DNA of 64,000 nucleotides, taken from assembly GCA_050951805.1 (NCBI GenBank), contig JBMNJT010000002.1:448001-512000 (forward strand). Reading direction: 5' to 3'. Position 1 is the stretch's first letter. Every line of letters begins with the position of its first letter. Below are positions 11,148 to 19,301 of the stretch, in pieces. Under the pieces are notes generated by a model that was given only the letters and a program-made list of their open reading frames with translations, had not been told where the DNA came from and made no database searches. Origin of the DNA: Bacillota bacterium. GTDB lineage: Bacteria; Bacillota; DTU025. Both the position numbers and the translations under genes were made by a program.

Positions 11148-13022
11148 GAATCTGCTCGGAAACTCCTCAAGGGCAGGCGTGAAGTTCGCTGGACCGAGTT
11201 GACTGAGAGCGATGTATCATCATGTGCGGACGTATAGGACGGCTATGTTGGGTTTGCCATCGTAATACGCAACATTGCTTTCAACTTCGTGGTATTACGC
11301 CCATATATGTGCTATAACATCAGCATAACATGTGTTTGGAGGCTACATCCATGCAAGGCCGGCGCGAACAACAGTTGACGTTTTCCGATGCTCTCTGGCC
11401 CAACGAAATACCCGAGAATTCCTACTGGGCAAGAATGCGAAAATACCTCCTTCAAATAGATGAATCAGTGTTCAGCCCTTTATTCTCGCATACGGGGCGT
11501 CCCTCGATTTCACCTGTGCTCACCTTTGGCGCAATGCTCATTCAGCTTGAAATAGGCTGGTCAGATAGGCAGTTGGAGGAAGAATCCCGGTTTGACGATC
11601 GCTGTAAATATGCCTTCGGGGTGAGTCGGGATTTCGCGGGGATTGATGCAGTTACCCTCTGCGAGCATAGGGCAAGGTTTATAGAATCAGGCATCATATT
11701 CACCTTGTTTCGCGACTTGCTGGCCGACGCCAAAGCAAAAGACCTCATCTCCGAGGACAAGCTCGAGATCGTCGATTCCTTTATGACCTATGGAGCCGCC
11801 GCTGTCCAAGATACATATACATTGCTACGCAAGGGAATCGTGCGGGTTCTCAAGATAGCCGAGTTCCATGAGTTCGATTCCAAGCTGACGCCTGTGCTTG
11901 GCCGCAAGGATTACACAACTGATGCAAAACCCAAGATCAACTGGGATGACCCTGAGGAAAAGCGCCTTCTGTTGGAATCTTATGTTGTTGACGCACGTAA
12001 CCTTGTAGCCGCCGTCCGTGCTTTGCAGCCTTTGCCCCGGGATTTGAAGGATGCGGCTGACCTGCTGGAACGCATTGCAAAGCAAGATATCGACGACGAT
12101 GATGGCCAGATCAACAGGATAATATCTGTTAATGACCCAGATATGCGACACGGGCGCAAGACATCGTCCTCCAAATTCGATGGGTACAAAACGCGCATCA
12201 TGACCGATGGCAATTTCGTAACTGCCGTGGTTGAGACGCCTGCCAACAAGGCTGACTCCGAACCATTCCCTGATCTTATGGATCAATGCGAGGCAAATGG
12301 AATCAAGTTTACGGAGGTCATGGGCGACAGCGCCTACAGCAATTGGCTGATTATCGACAGAAAGGCCAAGGATGGGATAACTGTGATAGCCAAAGTGCCA
12401 TCGGAACCGATAGTGGATGGAAGATACCCAAAGGGCAAATTCGACATAGACACGGAAAACGGTGTGGTTGCCTGCCCAGAGGGGTTTGCAGCTCAGTTTG
12501 ATCCATCTGCGATTGAGAGGCGAAAAGGGACCGTTGCTCGTTTTTCAGACTGCACGGAATGCACGAGTTCCTCAAGAGGCCGCAGCATATCGATCCACCC
12601 CTATGAGCCGGAGATAGCTACAGAACGGAAAAAGCAGGCGACGCCCGAATTCAAGGAATTCTACTCAGAACGCGCTGACGGCGAGAGGGTCATAAGCCAC
12701 CTGACAAGGCACGGGGGCAGACAGGCAAGGTACATAGGAGCCTTCAAAGTGTGGTGCCAGGAGGTCCTCACAGCGCTCAATCACAACATCAAGGCCTTCT
12801 ATAGACTGGCGCCAGCCACTGGCTAGATGTTGCAGGGGAGGACTGCCTGCAGAATCGGATAAATAGGCGCAAACGGGAAGCGCCTGGGGTGATGGGGGCC
12901 ATTAAGTTAGGCCCATGATGCCCTAAGCTATTGCTGGCAGCCTCTAGATAACCACATACTGCCTTTTCTTGATTGTCAAAGATTGCTCCGGGTTGATATC
13001 AGCTCTGTTGGCGAGCAGATTC
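11148..13022 (+). mobile_element. IS1182-family insertion sequence with CTAG flanks
   Basis: Left CTAG|GAATCTGCTCGGAAAC (11144-11163) and right GTTGGCGAGCAGATTC|CTAG (13007-13026) are inverted repeats (18/20 including CTAG); a single transposase lies inside; the exact TIR/TSD boundary within CTAG is ambiguous. Confidence 0.88.
11351..12826 (+). CDS. IS1182-family DDE transposase
   Basis: GRPSISP...LIQLEIGWSDRQ (DUF772-like), IVDS, RIISVNDPDMRHGRK...FDGYK, GDSAY, ERVISHL; GGAGG before ATG 11351. Confidence 0.92.
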   Translation: MQGRREQQLTFSDALWPNEIPENSYWARMRKYLLQIDESVFSPLFSHTGRPSISPVLTFGAMLIQLEIGWSDRQLEEESRFDDRCKYAFGVSRDFAGIDAVTLCEHRARFIESGIIFTLFRDLLADAKAKDLISEDKLEIVDSFMTYGAAAVQDTYTLLRKGIVRVLKIAEFHEFDSKLTPVLGRKDYTTDAKPKINWDDPEEKRLLLESYVVDARNLVAAVRALQPLPRDLKDAADLLERIAKQDIDDDDGQINRIISVNDPDMRHGRKTSSSKFDGYKTRIMTDGNFVTAVVETPANKADSEPFPDLMDQCEANGIKFTEVMGDSAYSNWLIIDRKAKDGITVIAKVPSEPIVDGRYPKGKFDIDTENGVVACPEGFAAQFDPSAIERRKGTVARFSDCTECTSSSRGRSISIHPYEPEIATERKKQATPEFKEFYSERADGERVISHLTRHGGRQARYIGAFKVWCQEVLTALNHNIKAFYRLAPATG

Positions 13023-13037
13023 CTAGGAGGGACCGAG

Positions 13038-13081
13038 TTGAGCACACAGCAAGTCATTAGGAGATTGGCAGTCGTCTGCTC
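13038..13081 (+). pseudogene. Probable 5' fragment (signal peptide start) of the interrupted PHP-like gene
   Basis: AGGAGG RBS then TTG and MSTQQVIRRLAVVC (basic n-region entering a hydrophobic stretch), cut at the IS21 end; the link to the downstream fragments is inferred. Confidence 0.55.
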
Positions 13082-13163
13082 TGTTTGGCAATCGAAAAGT
13101 TCATAGTTCGGCAGTCAAAAAGTGCATAGGCTACCACCACGCCCGGGGTCGGATCTCAGGGCC

Positions 13164-13955
13164 CTATTGGGCCGGGTCGTTTTTGTAAATAGTGTTTTGT
13201 TGGGGGTGGGCACCTCCAACGTCATCTGGGACATGCAATTGGGAGAGGGCGTGCCGTAGACGGTAGCTCTCCCCTGTGAATGCAAGCACATGTCCGTGAT
13301 GAACAAGCCTGTCAATGAGCGCGGCAGTGAGCCGGCTGTCGTTGATTACCGTGTTCCATTGTCCGAACTCAAGGTTCGTAGTGATGGCTACGCTTCGGCG
13401 CTCATAGCAGCTGGCGATTACTTGGAACAAGAGCTCTGCTGCGTGACGGGGTAGAGGCAAGAAGCCCAGTTCATCCACGATAAGCAGATCGCATGATTCG
13501 AGATCGCGTATTAAGCTTCCAAGAGTCCCTTTTGCGTTCTTCTCCAGCAAGCGGTTTGCCAGATCAACTGTCTGAAAGAATCGGACCTCCTTTCCGCTGA
13601 GGACAGCCTTAAGCCCCAGCGCTATCACAAGATGAGTTTTGCCTGTCCCCACGCCGCCCATGCAAATCAGGGACTCCTTCTCATCGATGAACCTCAGTTC
13701 GGTTAGATGTTCTATCGTGGTTTGGGGCGGCAATATGATGTTGTCACAGGAGAACTCCTCCAGCGTCTTGGTTTGCGGAAACCCTGCACGCTTCAACCTT
13801 CGCCGGTTTCGATTTTTCTCTCGGTTTCTTAGCTCTTCTGCAAATAGATCAGTCAGGAATTGCTCTCTGCTTTCAAAGGATATTTCATTGTAGGTCTGGC
13901 TCACCGAACCGAGTTTGAGCATCTTGCACTGTTTCTGAAGCAAAGAGTCTGTCAT
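13164..13955 (-). CDS. istB: IS21 helper AAA+ ATPase IstB
   Basis: GGVGTGKTHL Walker A, LLIVDELGF Walker B, ITTNLEFGQW, ALIDRLVHH, GESYRL. Confidence 0.97.
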   Translation of the reverse strand: MTDSLLQKQCKMLKLGSVSQTYNEISFESREQFLTDLFAEELRNREKNRNRRRLKRAGFPQTKTLEEFSCDNIILPPQTTIEHLTELRFIDEKESLICMGGVGTGKTHLVIALGLKAVLSGKEVRFFQTVDLANRLLEKNAKGTLGSLIRDLESCDLLIVDELGFLPLPRHAAELLFQVIASCYERRSVAITTNLEFGQWNTVINDSRLTAALIDRLVHHGHVLAFTGESYRLRHALSQLHVPDDVGGAHPQQNTIYKNDPAQ

Positions 13956-15475
13956 GCCTTGACCACTCCTTCAGCCCGTGCAGGCAAGAGCTTGTCGTAG
14001 ACTGCGGAATCTGGATTGTAAGCTGCTACTTCAATTGGCGTGTATCCCTCGGCAATAGGTTCGGGAAGCCCGTTTTCGGGGTTAAGCGCATACAGCTTGA
14101 GCTCAACGTTCGCGGGGTTGGCGCGCCTATCGGCTGGCAACACCTCAAGCGCCTCAGCTACTTCGTCTATGGAATACATCTTCAGCATGTCTCTCGCGAA
14201 CCGCACTCTAGCTGACCGTTCCGATGCATTCGCCTCCTTGAGGTAGGCTTGGACCGCCTTCGGAAGATAGCGGAACATAGCTGAATGCACGGCGGCTCGT
14301 GGCCTACGTGAGTAGATCTCAAAATGGGCCAGCCAGTCAATTGGTTGCTCTTTGAGCATGTAGTGCCTTGGCAGCGTTGTGAGCGCTTCGCCTTCCCGGT
14401 TCCGCACCTCGATGCGATCCCAATACACACTGAGCAAAACCTTCTGCCGTGGTTTCCCCTGTGGCACTGAATAGGTTTCCGACTCGAAGCGGAATTGAGC
14501 ATAGTTGTTTAATACTGCAGCATCAAGCCGCACAGCCTCGAATGGAACGCTTGGGAGCGGCAGCAACGCTGATTGCTCTTCTCGCCACATGTCGGCTATA
14601 GTCCTGCCCTTCTTGTAATGAATGCGATCCATGTCGCGGATAGCCTTAATTGCCAGTTGTTCGCCGAGCTCCTCGAAACTGTTGAGGGGGTGAAGAGGGC
14701 ATAGCCATTGCCGGCGTGAGTATCCTACCTTGTTTTCAACATTTCCTTTCTCGTTGCCTCGAGCCGGCGCACAGAAATCAACATCGAAGCGATAATGGAG
14801 CTGAAAGCGCATGAACGCCTCCGTAAGCGTGCGTTCTTCGCCCTTCCCTATGGTTGCTACCATAGTCGTCGCATTGTCCAACACTAGCCTCTGCGGCACA
14901 CCCCCTGCCTGCTCAAACAGAAGGCGAAGACCCTCCAGAAGGCACTCACCGTTCTCTGATGGCATTGGAACCGCAAAGCCAGCGTTTGACCATGGAAACG
15001 AAAGAACAAGCGCCTTGGCTTCCACGATCTTTCCATCCCGAACACAGCGGATTGTTCCGAAATCCGCCTGGGCTTCTCCAGGTTCGTGCATGAGTTCAAC
15101 GTAGGCCGTGGGTTCGGGTTCTTCCTTGAGCAACTCTTTCCGCCGATTTCGAACATACTCCCTAACTGTGCGTTCACTGCCTTCGAAGCCATGCTTCTCT
15201 CTTAGCTCACTGTAAATGGCTGCAGCATTTCGCCGATCCTTTCTCTGCAGCAACTGATCCTCAAGCAGCCAGGTATCTACAATGTCTGCCACGGGATCCA
15301 TTACAGGCCTACGCTTCTTTCTAACCGTAGGCGGCGATTCATTCCAGTCCTCCTTGTAAGCATATTTTGCCGCCGTTCTCCAACACACGTCGACTTTCCT
15401 GGCAATTTCGCTGATAGATGCACCTTCGTTTTCGAAGGCATGCTTGATATAATACTGTACAGGCATAGCGATCAC
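13952..15475 (-). CDS. istA: IS21 transposase IstA
   Basis: N-terminal HTH, PGEAQADFG, GGVPQRLVLDN, GNEKGNVENKVGY; overlaps istB. Confidence 0.97.
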   Translation of the reverse strand: MIAMPVQYYIKHAFENEGASISEIARKVDVCWRTAAKYAYKEDWNESPPTVRKKRRPVMDPVADIVDTWLLEDQLLQRKDRRNAAAIYSELREKHGFEGSERTVREYVRNRRKELLKEEPEPTAYVELMHEPGEAQADFGTIRCVRDGKIVEAKALVLSFPWSNAGFAVPMPSENGECLLEGLRLLFEQAGGVPQRLVLDNATTMVATIGKGEERTLTEAFMRFQLHYRFDVDFCAPARGNEKGNVENKVGYSRRQWLCPLHPLNSFEELGEQLAIKAIRDMDRIHYKKGRTIADMWREEQSALLPLPSVPFEAVRLDAAVLNNYAQFRFESETYSVPQGKPRQKVLLSVYWDRIEVRNREGEALTTLPRHYMLKEQPIDWLAHFEIYSRRPRAAVHSAMFRYLPKAVQAYLKEANASERSARVRFARDMLKMYSIDEVAEALEVLPADRRANPANVELKLYALNPENGLPEPIAEGYTPIEVAAYNPDSAVYDKLLPARAEGVVKA

Positions 15476-15613
15476 TCCACGTTACCTCCCCGATTGGTCA
15501 CAGTCAAATCTAGGGAGGTATTCTTGTGGCGTGGTGGTTATGCCTTCTTAATCTTCAATTTCTCCTGTGACATTTTGGCTGCCGTTCTCTGTATTGCCAT
15601 TATGCCGAAAACA

Positions 15614-17459
15614 TTCAAGCGCAACAGCACGCGTGAGGATGCCATAGCTGGAGTTCGCTGGCTCAATGAACACTATCGAGACTCCAGCTATGCGGTGATA
15701 AACCATCCTTCGCGCGCTATGAAGTATGCGCCGTCCGATCTGAGGGATCTGAACAATGCAAGCCCTGACGTCTGTTTCGGCTTTGAAGGCCTGCCGGGAA
15801 GACAGAAGAAGAGCTTCGGGTGCGGCTATAGCCAGGATTTTGCCGGTATGACACCACTATGTCGGACATATGGCGGAGCCGATCCCTTCCTTGCTACAAT
15901 TGGAGGGGTGTGGGATAGCTTGCTGGGAGAAGGTCGCAGATTTTGGGTTCTTGCTAATTCCGATTTTCATGAGGCTGGGTCCGATTCTGATTTCTACCCG
16001 GGCGAATACGCAAAGAACTACGTGAAGGTTGACGAGAACAGCCCAAAGGGAATAGTGGACGGATTGAGGTCCGGGAACTGTTTCGTTCGCCCGGCATGTT
16101 TGTTGAGCCGATGGACTGAAAGAAGTCCTGTCACCTAACCAGCGGGAAGACAACCCCAAGGCAAGGGCGTCGCTGGTAACGGCGGGGTCTGAAGGAAGCT
16201 TTAAGGGGGAACACGGAACGTAGCGAAAGCGAAGCGAAGTTGGGCTGTCAGGTGGGTAACCTTGCGAAGTATGGGAAAGCCCGAAAGCTGGATAACCTGC
16301 GGGTTAGGACGGACGGGTTCGTGTACAGGCAGACAAACTTAACCGGGGAAGCCCTGCATCATCCAGATAGCTGGTAAGCCCAAACAAGCGGAGACGCAAG
16401 GATGGGAATATGTGGTGTGGGGTGGCAGATGAGTCCGTAGTAGTTATGAACCCTCAGCCCATGAAAGCCGGCAACAGACCGGAGGATAAAACTGAGGGGA
16501 CAGCGGCCGGGAGCTGCTGGGCTGCATTGGCCAAAAGCCTATGCAGTTGCGAAGGGACGAAGGCAAACCAAAGCGTGCAACCTAGTTACAGGCAAGCATG
16601 GGAGAAAGATAACAGAGGCTGAAATGCCGATGGGAACGGGGGAGCCGGGGGCGACGAGTCTGCTGGTCCCTGCGCCCGCTCAGCAGAGTATCAAAGTTTC
16701 GCGGGGTAGATTGCCTTAGAGCTAGAGACGCCTCGCAAGCCTTGGGAAGAAACTGCAACCATGCAAGCTTGATGGCCAAGGAAGCACGGCGAGATGAATT
16801 GACCTCACGAAGTATGAGGTCGGCGTCTTGCATCTCTTCTATGAAGCGAAGTGACTAGGGTTTGCCAGGAGCCGTGTACGGGGCCCGTACGCACGGTTCT
16901 GTGAGAGGGATGACGCCAGGCTAATCACCCTGGCGCCACCCTACTCGATGTTGTCCATGGAGATCTTATTGACCACCTCGATTTCTGGGCCGAGTGCGGC
17001 AGCAGCGCCGCAACTATGGGCGAGTCAATATGGGTTCCGGCTGGGTCAGATGTGGTTGTTACTGTGCGTCTAAGAAGTCCCCATGAAGATGGGGTGGATC
17101 ATGTGGACTTGATCGCCGGAAGAGTATCCGGCCTGATTGTGCCCGAAGATGCGAGATACAACGTGGGAAACAACCCATCTACGCACGTGGTTGCAAGATT
17201 CTTCACAAAAGGCAAGCTTCTTGATGATGAGGGGTTTGCCAGCATGAGCCATGTGATCCGGAATGTGCGGAGTAACATGTATGTGAGGCTCCGAGGTACG
17301 AATCTTCCGGTAGGGGCGGCGCTGGAGACAGACTTCGACGGCGATCCGCTATCTGATGATCTCGCCCACCTAGGCGGCTATGACAACGAAATGGAAGCCT
17401 ATCACGATCTGTGGTTTTATTCGAACCCGATCAACATAAGGGTTGAGGGTGCTTGCTAA
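15614..17459 (+). pseudogene. PHP-like metallo-phosphoesterase (histidinol-phosphatase-like family), 5'-truncated by IS21 and split by a group II intron
   Basis: Exon 15614-16084 (INHPSR, FEGLPG, TYGGAD, WDSLLGEGR, NSDFH, DFYPGEY, LRSGNCF) joins in frame to exon 16950-17459 (VVHGDLIDHLDF...YVRLRGTNLP...DLWFYSNPI). Confidence 0.8.
16085..16949 (+). ncRNA. ORF-less group II intron (865 nt)
   Basis: 5' end GTTCGCCCGGCATG; domain V GAGCCGTGTACGGGGCCCGTACGCACGGTTC (16869-16899) with AGC triad; domain VI with bulged A (CCCTACTC); 3' end GAT; excision restores the host frame; no reverse transcriptase ORF. Confidence 0.92.
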
Positions 17460-17600
17460 GTGCTATGCGCGGGAGCTGCATACCGAGAGCAAGACCAAAT
17501 CTCATGTCCCCTTCCTGTTTTGCATCTGTTATGATGTGGTATGATAATCCACAGGTAGCTGCATAGGAGCGTTATTGCTCCAAAACAAAGGAGTTTTTTG

Positions 17601-18521
17601 ATGGGTTCAGTTGACTCTACAGTTCCAAGCTATGTTGGCCTTTACCGCACAGGCGAGCTGGCGAGGCGTGCTGAGGAAGCGGTAAGACGGCTTTCCCGTT
17701 GCGTGATATGTGCCCAAGCCTGCAACGTCAACCGTATAGAAGGCGAGCTGGGGTTCTGCCGAACGGGAAGGCTAGCTGTGGTGTCAAGTGCCGGCCGGCA
17801 CTTCGGTGAGGAGGACGTTTTGGTGGGAACCGGCGGCTCGGGAACGATCTTCTTTGCCAACTGTAACCTTGCGTGCGTCTTCTGTCAGAACTACGATATT
17901 AGCGCGTGCGGTTTCGGAAAAGAGGTCTCGCGTCGTAGATTGGCCGACATGATGTTAAGCTTGCAGGCCAAGGGCTGCCATAACATCAATTTAGTCTCCC
18001 CGAGCCATGTCGTGCCCCAGGTTTTGGAGGCGTTGGTCCTCGCGGTAGAAGAAGGGCTGAGGCTGCCGCTTGTGTACAACACAGGGGGTTATGATGCACT
18101 TTCAACTTTGAAACTGCTTGATGGGATAGTTGACATCTACATGCCTGACTTCAAGTTCGCAGATGCCGATGATGCAGAGCGGTTTTCCGCCGCACCGCGA
18201 TACCCGACTGTGGCGCAGGCTGCGATAAGGGAGATGCATCGGCAGGTAGGTGACTTGGTAGTCGATGAAGATGGGGTTGCCCGACGTGGGCTTATTCTGC
18301 GGCATTTGGTGATGCCGGGGAAGTTGGACGATACACGTGAGATAATGAGATTTGTGGTCCGGTATATCTCGCGCGACACTTATGTGAATGTAATGGGCCA
18401 GTATCGACCTGCCCACCTTGCTTCTCGGTATCCCGAGCTTAGCAGGGCGCTTGGGATATCCGAACACCAGAGGGCCATTGAGATCGCGCGCGAGGAGGGG
18501 CTGTATCGATTTGCGAGGTAG
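17601..18521 (+). CDS. PflX-like radical SAM protein (PFL-activating-like)
   Basis: N-terminal CVICAQAC, HFGEE, GSGTIFF, CNLACVFCQN (CxxxCxxC), NINLVSPSH, DIYMPDFK, RHLVMPG. Confidence 0.92.
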   Translation: MGSVDSTVPSYVGLYRTGELARRAEEAVRRLSRCVICAQACNVNRIEGELGFCRTGRLAVVSSAGRHFGEEDVLVGTGGSGTIFFANCNLACVFCQNYDISACGFGKEVSRRRLADMMLSLQAKGCHNINLVSPSHVVPQVLEALVLAVEEGLRLPLVYNTGGYDALSTLKLLDGIVDIYMPDFKFADADDAERFSAAPRYPTVAQAAIREMHRQVGDLVVDEDGVARRGLILRHLVMPGKLDDTREIMRFVVRYISRDTYVNVMGQYRPAHLASRYPELSRALGISEHQRAIEIAREEGLYRFAR

Positions 18522-18659: not shown

Positions 18660-19301
18660 TTATCGTTTGAAAGCGTTCAGGCCGCTATTGTGTCTGCCTT
18701 CGGATGGTGTACATACTATGTAGATATTTCGGAAGCCCGGAATGTGAGTGTTCCACAATTTCAAGAACTGTTCTTCTGCCAATATGCGATTTCCTGGGTC
18801 TTTGCCGTTCCCGTCTTCAGCTATCTCAGGGTCGTAAAAATGCAATTCCTTGGTGGGCTCATCGTATCCAACAAGCACAAAGTAGTGCATCCACTTCAAT
18901 CCATCGCCGGTTATCACTATTATTGGGTTTCCCATTGAGAGCCTGGCCTTGAGGGTATTGAGTGTCCCGGTATAGACTTGAGCTTGGATGCCGTGTCGAC
19001 GAAGCTCATTAATGGGTCCCCTCGGCAAGACCCTGCCAGACGGGAGCTTGAACCTGACAGCGTCGTAGATTTCCTTGCCGGTTACCTCGATTTCGAAGTG
19101 GCGGAGCACATACGCGACTGCAAACCCTGTGCACTCGTTCTTGCCCTGAATTTCAAATCGGTTGGGCGCTTCGATCCAGACGGATTCACGGATAACCTGC
19201 GTCACAGTATCAGCTCGTGCTAGGGGACCGCTTGCATAAAACCCAAGACCAGCAAGGACAAGGAATATGACGATGACGATGCTCTTCCACGGAATTTGCA
19301 A
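18660..19301 (-). CDS. Secreted or membrane-anchored C39-like cysteine peptidase
   Basis: N-terminal hydrophobic segment; QGKNEC, MHYFVLVGYD and YDP give the Q/C/H/D catalytic pattern. Confidence 0.82.
   Translation of the reverse strand: MQIPWKSIVIVIFLVLAGLGFYASGPLARADTVTQVIRESVWIEAPNRFEIQGKNECTGFAVAYVLRHFEIEVTGKEIYDAVRFKLPSGRVLPRGPINELRRHGIQAQVYTGTLNTLKARLSMGNPIIVITGDGLKWMHYFVLVGYDEPTKELHFYDPEIAEDGNGKDPGNRILAEEQFLKLWNTHIPGFRNIYIVCTPSEGRHNSGLNAFKR

Follow-up and report, generated by a model that had tools for sequence, protein, structure and literature searches.

A coding sequence interrupted by a ribozyme that carries no gene for its own maturase raises the questions of what the interrupting element is, where it came from and whether it still splices. 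The case considered here lies in a window of 64,000 nt from contig JBMNJT010000002.1 of a Bacillota bacterium (DTU025), an uncultured anaerobe of digester, sludge and landfill samples. A reading of this stretch without database searches (the sequence-only reading) had proposed an ORF-less, non-autonomous group II intron, and the comparison of copies in the same genome supports that proposal. Taken together, the evidence indicates that positions 16085-16949 of the forward strand very probably hold a non-autonomous element that arose by deletion from a class IIC group II intron retroelement (Table 1).

In a search against Rfam, both the domain I model (RF02001, group-II-D1D4-3; 50.1 bits, gathering threshold 32) and the domain V-VI model (RF00029, Intron_gpII; 16867-16949, 48.6 bits, gathering threshold 40) matched above threshold, and the RF00029 match stops precisely on the proposed 3′ end of the intron. 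The genome's 12 family copies all start with GTTCGCCCGGCATG and the 10 complete ones all end with CCTACTCGAT, and the flanking DNA differs from copy to copy; shared termini within differing flanks mark these ends as the boundaries of the element. The 5′ end, GUUCG, departs from GUGYG at its third base, and the 3′ end is AU. The non-canonical start remarked upon earlier is thus present but is no oddity of this copy, as GUUYG occurs in 19 of the 23 related introns with a placeable 5′ end. An uninterrupted allele was identified in another assembly: its 501-aa product (P0001) matches both exons without a difference and runs from ...LRSGNCF directly into VVHGDLIDHLDF..., which indicates, by DNA and protein comparison, that the intron boundaries and the in-frame excision are right. 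That P0001 represents intron-free DNA rather than spliced RNA is suggested by the 26-kb length of its contig. Four more distant homologues are likewise colinear across the NCF/VVHGD junction, bearing out the join that had been read from the letters.

Table 1. Coordinates of the intron, its parts and its surroundings in the window
Feature	Position	Strand	Basis
IS21-family element (istA 13952-15475, istB 13164-13955)	13076..15613	-	Pfam; abuts host codon 176
Exon 1 remnant, host codons 176-332 (157 codons)	15614..16084	+	tblastn of P0001 against the genome of the window
IBS1 TTTC, final 4 nt of the 5′ exon	16081..16084	+	pairs with EBS1 GAAG
ORF-less group II intron assigned by sequence to class IIC, 865 nt	16085..16949	+	Rfam matches; ends common to 12 copies; uninterrupted allele P0001
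Domain I	16085..16348	+	closing helices, compensatory changes in 9 sequences; RF02001 match 16170-16338
AGGAA of the epsilon-prime bulge, IIC hallmark	16193..16197	+	sequence
EBS1 GAAG, intron nt 182-185	16266..16269	+	covaries with exon positions -4 to -1 in 20 introns
Domain II	16352..16422	+	outer stem 16352-61:16413-22 covaries in relatives; name inferred from order
Domain III (approximate limits)	16424..16499	+	follows domains I and II; name inferred
Domain IV (approximate limits)	16500..16866	+	contains the ORF-deletion junction 16798/16799
IEP remnant, last 17-18 codons and stop TGA (16852-54)	16798..16854	+	matches the C-terminus of the 423-aa IEP, IDLTKYEVGVLHLFYEAK and stop
Domain V, 31 nt, AGC triad 16870-72, non-GNRA loop	16869..16899	+	RF00029 alignment
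Domain VI, bulged branch-point A 16943	16903..16946	+	RF00029 alignment, fold
Exon 2, host codons 333-501 and stop	16950..17459	+	169/169 identical to P0001

The limits of domain I were drawn from nine sequences, in which the closing helix 16090-94:16343-47 shows compensatory changes at three of its five pairs and a second helix, 16098-16104:16332-38, is also paired. The AGGAA of the epsilon-prime bulge stands in the context UCUGAAGGAAG. Domains V and VI are as the sequence-only reading had described them, the former with an AGC triad, a short upper stem and a non-GNRA loop and the latter with a bulged A. The distal stem of domain V has 3-4 bp, its sequence is the same in nine of 10 aligned copies (copy J differs by one base) with the AGC kept in all 10, and the bulged A is the seventh nucleotide counted from the 3′ end. 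No RT ORF lies within the intron, again as read before, and what is left of one is the C-terminal remnant of the IEP.

The origin of this form can be traced in the same genome. A search of the whole genome with the intron recovered three identical full-length copies of 2092 nt, each with an identical, intact 423-aa RT/maturase, as well as four further 865-nt ORF-less copies, to which the copy in the window is 97.7-98.3% identical; the siblings suspected earlier therefore exist, ORF-containing ones included. Each of the five ORF-less copies has a site of its own, and all carry the same 1227-nt deletion, with the junction GATGAA/TTGACC in 5/5 (714/1942 in full-length numbering) and at most 1 nt of microhomology. 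This deletion starts 12 nt 5′ of the IEP start codon and ends 18 codons before the stop. In the fold predicted for the ORF-less RNA, the junction lies between the stem 16789-96:16824-31 and the hairpin 16799-16823, and on this model the deletion would take out exactly the giant bulge between two domain IV helices. ORF-less copy B is the same as full-length copy G over 866/866 shared columns and copy C shows one difference. No substitution was found that sets all five ORF-less copies apart from the full-length copies, and the argument for their single origin is therefore the identical junction itself.

That junction bears directly on the alternative that no trans mobilisation took place, a full-length intron having reached each site and lost its ORF there independently. 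Although ORF loss does recur in the family, with at least four junction types, the junction considered here is identical at five unrelated sites with 1 nt of microhomology at most, and the recognisable separate events (K, L, M, O and I/J) all differ in junction, which makes independent loss extremely unlikely. The intact masters speak similarly to the proposal of a self-sufficient ORF-less ribozyme without need of a maturase, like C.te.I1 of Clostridium tetani. C.te.I1 is also an ORF-less group II intron within a coding sequence, and robust self-splicing is described for some ORF-less bacterial introns (PMC4424553). However, C.te.I1 self-splices in a genome for which no related IEP is reported, and the same source presents it as the sole known exception to the rule that ORF-less bacterial introns are nearly always accompanied by related IEP-encoding introns (PMC4424553), whereas three intact cognate IEP genes are present here and the ORF-less form is a recent deletion, copy B matching master G outside it. 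We consider self-sufficiency highly improbable.

The genome also contains decayed relatives, comprising copies K, L, M, N and O and several 5′ fragments. The ORF-deletion junctions of the diverged relics (K, L, M, O and I/J) are all different, which indicates that ORF loss recurred, with at least four independent deletion types (that of copies A-E, M, O and I/J; probably also K and L). Three of these lie within ~6 nt of the domain IV helix junction, a pattern that RT template switching across the base of a helix would give.

Members of the family have landed behind terminators, beside or within resident introns, in one CRISPR repeat and in a coding sequence. Copy J is the one inserted inside a CRISPR repeat; a literature search found no report of IIC introns in CRISPR repeats, which is weak evidence of absence. 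A metagenome contig carrying the ORF-less junction at the CRISPR-repeat site (L104) was set aside, as it continues into sequence resembling rRNA and appears to be a chimera.

Judged by its sequence, the intron family is of class IIC, a membership that the sequence-only reading had passed over. The IEP of the full-length copies comprises RVT_1 and GIIM only, without an endonuclease domain, and its best PDB relatives are all IIC proteins (GsI-IIC RT 6ar1, E 8.4e-103, then 7uim, 5hhj and 5hhl), followed by LtrA at E 1.1e-46. According to PMC1702495, IIC introns have AGGAA in the epsilon-prime bulge as a class-specific motif and, in domain V, a distal stem that lacks 2 bp relative to IIA and IIB and a basal stem in which CGC takes the place of AGC. 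The present family shares the AGGAA bulge and the shortened distal stem, its ~420-aa IEP likewise combines RT and maturase without an endonuclease, and it inserts a few nucleotides past GC-rich, T-tailed hairpins, as B.h.I1, GsI-IIC and the Eubacterium rectale IIC intron do. It differs from the IIC introns so described in that domain V has AGC rather than CGC and a non-GNRA loop and that the ORF site lies ~300 nt into domain IV; the copy in the window differs further in lacking an ORF and in lying within a coding sequence, behind a weak hairpin.

Recognition of the 5′ exon had been tentatively ascribed to GCAACAG (16471-16477). The CCGG hairpin and the 6/7 pairing with CTGTTTC are present, but a role as EBS1 does not hold. 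The segment is outside domain I, whose closing helix ends at 16347; the same loop sequence, GG(Y)AACAGACCGG, is kept in eight relatives regardless of the 5′ exon; and it pairs poorly with the other 11 target sites of the family, never at position -2. The misread hairpin (16468-16482) falls in domain III. Two further guesses from alignments by eye, GAAU (16406-09) and GAAC (16447-50), were dropped when the end of domain I proved to be 16348. A k-mer scan against the 12 target sites was uninformative since G-rich words pair with any pyrimidine run. Class IIC has a short IBS1-EBS1 pairing of 3-4 bp and no EBS2-IBS2 pairing, and by eye the 12 sites show no consensus at positions -5 and beyond. Among 21 genomes of the same order, four (this genome included) gave matches, mainly fragments; these were too few for covariation, and loci found through the IEP in genome contigs were therefore used. 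Across 20 introns, the position held here by GAAG, the first four nucleotides of a hexaloop in the hairpin CCUUGC/UGGG, formed 73 of 80 possible pairs with the exon ends, as against a shuffled mean of 59.8, and none of 20,000 shuffles reached 73. Its pairing with IBS1 in this copy is 4/4 (three Watson-Crick pairs and one G-U), which equals the best family sites. Similarly, the E. rectale IIC intron has a 4-nt EBS1 in a terminal loop, placed at nt 184-187 in its cryoEM structure (PMC10190682).

Removal of the intron joins 157 and 169 codons in phase 0 into a segment of 326. The claim that excision exactly restores the host frame is thus confirmed as to phase but is moot in this genome, where the gene is cut by an IS21-family element (IstB_IS21 match, E 4.9e-61) whose ends at 13076/13080 and 15613 were set by three other full copies at ~99% identity. 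Searching P0001 against the genome of the window by tblastn returned residues 176-332 and 333-501 only, and no part of the assembly contains host codons 1-175. An assembly gap could in principle explain this, because the genome is 97% complete in eight contigs. The host gene in this genome is a 5′-truncated pseudogene, and the intron therefore now restores nothing in it. No Pfam families were identified on the two exons, P0001 or the two short intron ORFs, and when an allele reading through with its N-terminus intact was sought (a protein of ~350 aa), none appeared as a cluster of its own.

Besides this genome, two or more metagenomic populations carry the intron-bearing allele, and in one of these the IS21 junction is missing. 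One metagenome contig (L103) is identical over 278/278 positions in the intron's 3′ part and continues into exon 2. A contig of the DNA run spans 15613-16110 and then has 786 letters that are not on IS21 sequence, and a second spans 16893-17600 with the private domain VI changes of this copy. Since the same copy occurs elsewhere without the IS21 junction and another population has an empty site, allele comparison places the intron insertion before the IS21 event.

Because IIC introns normally insert after terminators, a copy in coding sequence is the unusual point of this locus. In 11 of the 12 copies, strong terminator-like hairpins precede the intron, with folding energies of -9.9 to -16.0 kcal/mol over the 45 upstream nt. 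The corresponding 45 nt of the copy in the window form an interrupted, weak hairpin of -4.8 kcal/mol, no better than random 45-mers (mean -4.26 kcal/mol, 5th percentile -8.5). The terminator hairpin, which is a property of the site and not of the ribozyme, therefore characterises the family (11/12) and is wanting here; this copy is an off-rule insertion on the sense strand of a ~500-aa coding sequence.

The copy also carries 11 private substitutions relative to its siblings. Two of these, at 16234 and 16244, replace a C found in 7/7 siblings and in 8/8 and 7/8 relatives, respectively, and the RF02001 score is 11.6 bits below the 61.7 bits of four siblings. These domain I changes and the low score suggest that the copy may already be inactive. 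The RF00029 score, 48.6 bits, is level with that of the siblings (48.5-48.7), and a private T to C change at 16469 converts a G-U into a G-C pair in its hairpin.

On part of this evidence the copy could be a working intron that, in strains with an intact host gene, is spliced by the maturase in trans with efficient exon ligation, so that the 501-aa protein is made. The exact, phase 0 boundaries, the full IBS1-EBS1 pairing, the sibling-like scores of domains V and VI, the strengthened hairpin pair at 16469 and the persistence of the allele in other populations are all consistent with efficient splicing, and ORF-less introns in dnaN of Trichodesmium are reported to be spliced by the maturase of another intron (PMC12584367). 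This is possible rather than likely. In self-splicing of the IIC intron B.h.I1, neither a natural copy whose 5′-exon stem-loop is mispaired nor a mutant that has IBS1 but no stem-loop yielded ligated exons (PMC1702495). The random-like upstream fold and the changes at two conserved domain I positions, with the lower domain I score, count against it as well.

The opposite reading, that the copy no longer folds or excises and is decaying within a pseudogene as a dead relic, also appears doubtful to us. It would account for 11 private differences where copies B and C have 0-1 relative to a master copy, for the RF02001 score below that of the siblings and for the company of many decayed relatives in the genome, and the truncated host gene leaves no selection for splicing here. 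However, the full length, the ends, domains V and VI, the branch A and EBS1 are all intact, the identity to active-looking siblings is 98%, and both Rfam matches are well over their gathering thresholds. Our own reading is that this copy is in slow decay. With domains V and VI, the ribozyme core, intact, the IEP can probably still excise its RNA, and ligation of its exons is likely to be inefficient; the weak 5′-exon hairpin and the private domain I substitutions argue for caution on splicing.

No contig joining 16084 to 16950 was found in three metatranscriptome runs and one DNA run over 15300-17600, where RNA coverage of exon 1 was nil and that of exon 2 had a depth of ~3; this result speaks neither for nor against splicing. 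RNA depth over the intron is high but family-wide and hence cannot be assigned to this copy. From the pattern of copies, the biology of IIC introns and other ORF-less bacterial introns, a scheme in trans can be proposed. The RT/maturase of a master copy would bind the ORF-less RNA at domain IV and the EBS loops and aid its splicing. The RNP could then reverse-splice into DNA where a short spacer separates a stem-loop from a 4-nt IBS1, and the cDNA would be primed by replication intermediates because the protein has no endonuclease.

Trans mobilisation of ORF-less introns has been demonstrated experimentally in Thermosynechococcus elongatus (PMC2882425). Similar to the ORF-less TeI3 and ORF-containing TeI4 introns of that organism (PMC2882425), the deletion derivatives described here keep remnants of the ORF ends, outnumber the ORF-containing copies and coexist with close IEP-encoding introns, mobilisation in trans being shown there and suggested here by the copy pattern. 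Unlike the present family, TeI3/TeI4 are not of class IIC and choose sites by long EBS-IBS pairing, and all 17 have a single breakpoint (PMC2882425), where at least four independent ones occur here. The dnaN introns of Trichodesmium erythraeum are also ORF-less and lie in sense orientation within coding sequence, but they belong to another class, interrupt an essential gene and have documented splicing by the maturase of a RIR intron located elsewhere (PMC12584367), whereas the host gene here is non-essential and truncated and such dependence would be expected by analogy. The IIC-attC introns of integrons resemble copy J in that a non-terminator hairpin, in this case that of a CRISPR repeat, serves as landing mark (PMC4424553); the present family has targeted terminators, a single CRISPR repeat and a single coding sequence, and no attC sites were seen.

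A broader scenario can be offered tentatively, as one that we think less likely to be right than wrong by some distance: ORF loss would have been repeated under the guidance of RNA structure through RT template switching, the ORF-less forms would have been spread by the protein of the masters, and the copy in coding sequence might, in strains whose host gene is intact, be kept harmless by maturase-assisted splicing. If so, nature would here provide an example of a terminator-seeking IIC retroelement that has become a gene's protein-dependent intron. The family leaves present understanding of group II introns unaltered. It presents a whole life cycle in one genome, with masters, a young and more numerous non-autonomous lineage, older relics that lost their ORF independently and off-rule insertions, and the empty, filled and filled-then-truncated alleles of the coding-sequence site are all found in nature. 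These introns thus offer a natural system for the stringency of the IIC hairpin requirement, the rescue of hairpin-less ligation by a maturase in trans and the origin of ORF-less derivatives.

Copy A, the group II intron without an open reading frame (ORF) at 16085–16949 (+), is a real element with exact boundaries. All features listed for it in the sequence-only reading are present in the window, and its assignment to group II was confirmed by covariance models: RF02001 (group-II-D1D4-3; 16170–16338 (+), 50.1 bits) and RF00029 (Intron_gpII, domains V–VI; 16867–16949 (+), 48.6 bits) are the only two Rfam matches in the whole window at gathering thresholds, and the latter stops exactly at the proposed 3′ end. 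No ORF of at least 50 aa inside copy A has a Pfam family, in agreement with the reported lack of a reverse transcriptase (RT)/maturase ORF. The GUUCG 5′ end, previously called non-canonical, is normal for the clade: 5′ ends were placed in 23 of 41 loci with relatives of the intron-encoded protein (IEP), 19 being GUUYG and four GUGYG.

Features of copy A, its surroundings, and related introns in the genome (C numbers are contigs; a slash marks a deletion junction)
Feature	Position	Strand	Details
IS21-family element, complete	13076/13080–15613	−	istA 13952–15475; istB 13164–13955; IstB_IS21 E 4.9e-61
Domain V	16869–16899		31 nt; AGC 16870–72; distal stem 3–4 bp; non-GNRA loop
Domain VI	16903–16946		bulged A 16943, seven nt from intron end
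Private differences of copy A	16234, 16244, 16298, 16300, 16325, 16469, 16606, 16858, 16923, 16926, 16928		
Other 865-nt copies	C7:28591–29455	−	
Other 865-nt copies	C2:930928–931792		
Other 865-nt copies	C4:16381–17245	−	
Other 865-nt copies	C2:1101225–1102089		
Junction of A–E			GATGAA/TTGACCTCAC
Relic K	C4:98677–99460		junction GATGAAGG/GCCTCATC
Relic L	C2:1485624–1486640		junction GATGAAGGA/CC; additional 9-nt gap
Relic M	C8:451087–451743		junction GATGAAGGAGCT/CACCAAC
Relic N	C2:1021800–1022286		
Relic O	C2:860750–861260		~nt 655 fused to the same right-hand region via CCTCRC microhomology
Deletion in I and J	nt 640 to ~790		lost between 10-nt direct repeats CCTTAGAGCT

With exon 2 as query, a protein of 501 aa (P0001) was retrieved from a different public assembly; it is identical to exon 2 at 169/169 residues and uninterrupted across the intron site (GIVDGLRSGNCF directly followed by VVHGDLIDHLDFWAE). 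In the window's own genome (tblastn), its residues 176–332 lie at 15614–16084 and 333–501 at 16950–17456, so that excision of 16085–16949 gives 157 + 169 = 326 codons in phase 0. P0002, P0004, P0005, and P0008 (45–54% identity) are also colinear across the exon junction; both the exact frame restoration and the colinearity of homologues anticipated from sequence alone are thereby upheld. No Pfam family was found for the host protein, some relatives of which are named 'S-layer protein', 'DUF3604', or 'CehA/McbA family metallohydrolase' by their sources.

Host homology begins at 15614, where the gene is truncated at codon 176 and adjoins a complete IS21-family element, whose ends are set by at least three other full copies (~99% identity) in the same genome. 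Codons 1–175 of P0001 were found nowhere in the assembly (2.75 Mb, 8 contigs, 97% complete), which, together with the IS21 end at 15613, argues that the host gene is a 5′-truncated pseudogene in this genome. On the left side of the IS21 element, the sequence bears no relation to the host gene. There, next to the element, is a second transposase gene (11330–12826 (+); domains DDE_Tnp_1, DDE_Tnp_1_6, and DUF772), making this stretch a mobile-element cluster. The 3′ neighbours, encoding a radical SAM protein (17598–18521 (+)) and a C39-like peptidase family protein (18660–19301 (−)), look ordinary, with no link to the intron seen.

One contig from a sludge DNA run matches 15613–16110 without differences, and its remaining 786 letters, which are not on the window, may encode the missing N-terminus. 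A second contig from the same run covers 16893–17600, including the private domain VI changes of copy A, and a JGI metagenome contig (L103) is identical at 278/278 positions from intron nt 588 into exon 2. The same insertion thus occurs in other populations too, in at least one case lacking the IS21 junction, and the empty site is represented by P0001. The stretch occurs in runs annotated as metagenomes of sludge, anaerobic digester, wastewater, landfill, and sediment.

Siblings in the genome, suspected from the window alone, comprise four more 865-nt copies (A–E are 97.7–100% identical) and three ORF-encoding 2092-nt copies (F, G, and H), besides two shorter ORF-bearing variants (I and J) and several fragments; all 10 genomic RF00029 matches over the cut-off belong to this family. 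All three masters (F, G, and H) have the same 423-aa product, in which RVT_1 (E 2.7e-40) and GIIM (E 3.6e-22) are the only domains. The alignment shows one deletion of 1227 nt common to the five short copies; it begins 12 nt before the IEP start codon (junction GATGAA/TTGACC, window 16798/16799) and spares the last 17–18 IEP codons and stop (16798–16854). Short copy B equals full-length copy G at all 866 shared columns, and copy C departs from it at a single one, so the ORF-less form is of recent origin from the masters. This form occupies five unrelated sites, a distribution that would be expected from trans mobilisation, and the master IEP may mobilise it in trans, as shown experimentally for Thermosynechococcus elongatus ORF-less introns (PMC2882425). 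Bacterial ORF-less introns are described in PMC4424553 as rare and nearly always accompanied by related IEP-encoding introns in the same genome. Copy A belongs to class IIC as an ORF-less member predicted to depend on help in trans, a kind of element known before.

Membership in class IIC is settled by the terminator-like hairpins flanking the introns. Folded as DNA, the 45 nt preceding the intron reach −9.9 to −16.0 kcal/mol for 11 of the 12 copies, compared with a mean of −4.26 (sd 2.3, 5th percentile −8.5) for 500 random genomic 45-mers. The hairpin ends 2–8 nt before the insertion point, often followed by T's, and a same-strand ORF of at least 80 aa ends 16–164 nt upstream at seven of nine sites tested. 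By eye, an inverted repeat and T run also precede most 5′-placed relatives with flank. Such sites are the habit of class IIC according to PMC4424553, PMC1702495, and PMC10190682. The best solved relatives of the IEP are all IIC (6ar1, GsI-IIC RT, E 8.4e-103; 7uim, 3.9e-87; 5hhj; 5hhl), and LtrA ranks after them (E 1.1e-46). Among IIC features named in PMC1702495, copy A has the AGGAA bulge (16193–97), a shortened domain V distal stem, and a short EBS1, but AGC instead of CGC in domain V.

GCAACAG (16471–77), earlier proposed as EBS1, does pair with its own exon at 6/7 positions, but its identity as EBS1 is ruled out. With the other 11 family sites it forms 1–5 of 7 pairs, never at exon position −2 (T at 10 of the 12 family sites), and its loop GG(Y)AACAGACCGG is kept in eight related introns whose exons end in ATTT, TTAT, GTGT, CTTT, GCAT, or TTTT. 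Helix 16090–94:16343–47 pairs in 9/9 aligned sequences, with compensatory double changes at three of five pairs, and the next helix (16098–16104:16332–38) covaries too; domain I therefore ends at ~16348, and GCAACAG lies ~120 nt beyond it.

Covariation with the exons instead identifies GAAG (16266–69, intron nt 182–185) as EBS1 of copy A. It lies in the domain I hairpin CCUUGC(GAAGUA)UGGG, whose loop is variable and whose first four loop bases track the last four exon bases (AUAA/UUAU, AAAG/CUUU, CAAA/UUUG twice, AGAA/UUCU, AUGA/UCGU). Loop and exon pair at 73 of 80 positions over 20 introns (copy A, 8 close, and 11 more distant relatives); exon shuffling gave a mean of 59.8 and reached 73 in 0 of 20,000 trials, a control that overstates independence since the introns are related and many exons are UUUU. 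The count left out three loci without exon flank, one with an unalignable domain I, and 18 without a placed boundary. Fits are poor at L059 (1/4 in this register) and L101 (2/4). GAAG pairs 4/4 at site A (UUUC) and sites C, F, and L, 2/4 at B, and 1/4 at J. In the E. rectale IIC cryoEM structure, EBS1 is A184–G187, in the loop at the D1d tip (PMC10190682), compared with nt 182–185 here.

Of the nine sites tested, that of copy A alone lies, when empty, within a long frame on the same strand (462 codons stop to stop). Its upstream fold (−4.8 kcal/mol) is no better than random, so that the site combines a good IBS1 (4/4) with a poor hairpin. Self-splicing of the IIC intron B.h.I1 yielded no ligated exons from a natural copy with a mispaired stem-loop, nor from a mutant without the stem-loop but with IBS1 (PMC1702495). 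By analogy, insertion of copy A probably damaged the host gene, rather than being silently spliced out.

Eleven private changes distinguish copy A from its seven near-identical siblings. Two of these positions, 16234 and 16244, are G in copy A but C in 7/7 siblings and in 8/8 and 7/8 relatives, respectively. Its RF02001 score is 50.1 bits versus 61.7 for C, D, E, and G, with RF00029 unchanged; the domain VI changes lie in its loop, and that at 16469 improves a hairpin pair. The catalytic core looks intact, and domain I is slightly degraded. In three sludge metatranscriptomes, intron-body contigs have word depth far above the flanking exons or the IS21 element, which hints at abundant intron RNA as a family-wide signal not assignable to copy A.

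Diverged relics of 69–92% identity (K–O) are also ORF-less, with deletion junctions differing from that of A–E. The deletion in M certainly arose independently, since M still has, on the left side, 6 nt that A lacks. At least four independent events are counted (A–E, M, O, and I/J), unlike T. elongatus, in which all 17 ORF-less introns share one breakpoint (PMC2882425). K and L are probable further events, which could also be mutated A-type junctions. In the ORF-less RNA fold, GCGAGAUG (16789–96) pairs with CGUCUUGC (16824–31), and a hairpin (16799–16823) follows two unpaired A's, so that the ORF of the masters is a 1.2-kb bulge between these helices, which the deletions remove almost exactly. 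This pattern fits RT template switching across the helix base; it also fits survival of only those deletions that keep domain IV intact. A tRNA gene lies immediately upstream of each of the relics M and K. The I/J lineage occupies two sites (C3:143717–145566 and C4:101073–102895) and shares three in-frame IEP deletions, through one of which the maturase domain has lost its RGWINYFR stretch. This lineage, too, probably depends on master copies.

At C7:28591–31547(−) (L002/L006), full-length F is followed by ORF-less B with zero bases between; most simply, one terminator site was used on two occasions, and the later arrival inserted 5′ of the resident intron and took that intron's first base as its 3′ exon. 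Copy D (C4:16381–17245(−), L004) sits after GTTC, the first four bases of another intron fragment, which is far more diverged and is itself preceded by a terminator hairpin; this is a nested insertion using the resident's 5′ end as IBS1. Copy J (C4:100981–102895, L011) interrupts a CRISPR-like array of two repeats. It splits the second of them between GGGTGCGTGGAT and the TGAAAC expected next, with the hairpin of the repeat taking the place of a terminator; nothing more of the array is left. A limited literature search found no report of IIC introns in CRISPR repeats.

Some of these features may already be in print in surveys of ORF-less or IIC introns. Three points make the element more than ordinary: its position in a coding sequence for which empty, filled, and truncated alleles occur naturally; the young non-autonomous lineage, more numerous than its masters; and the repeated loss of the ORF.
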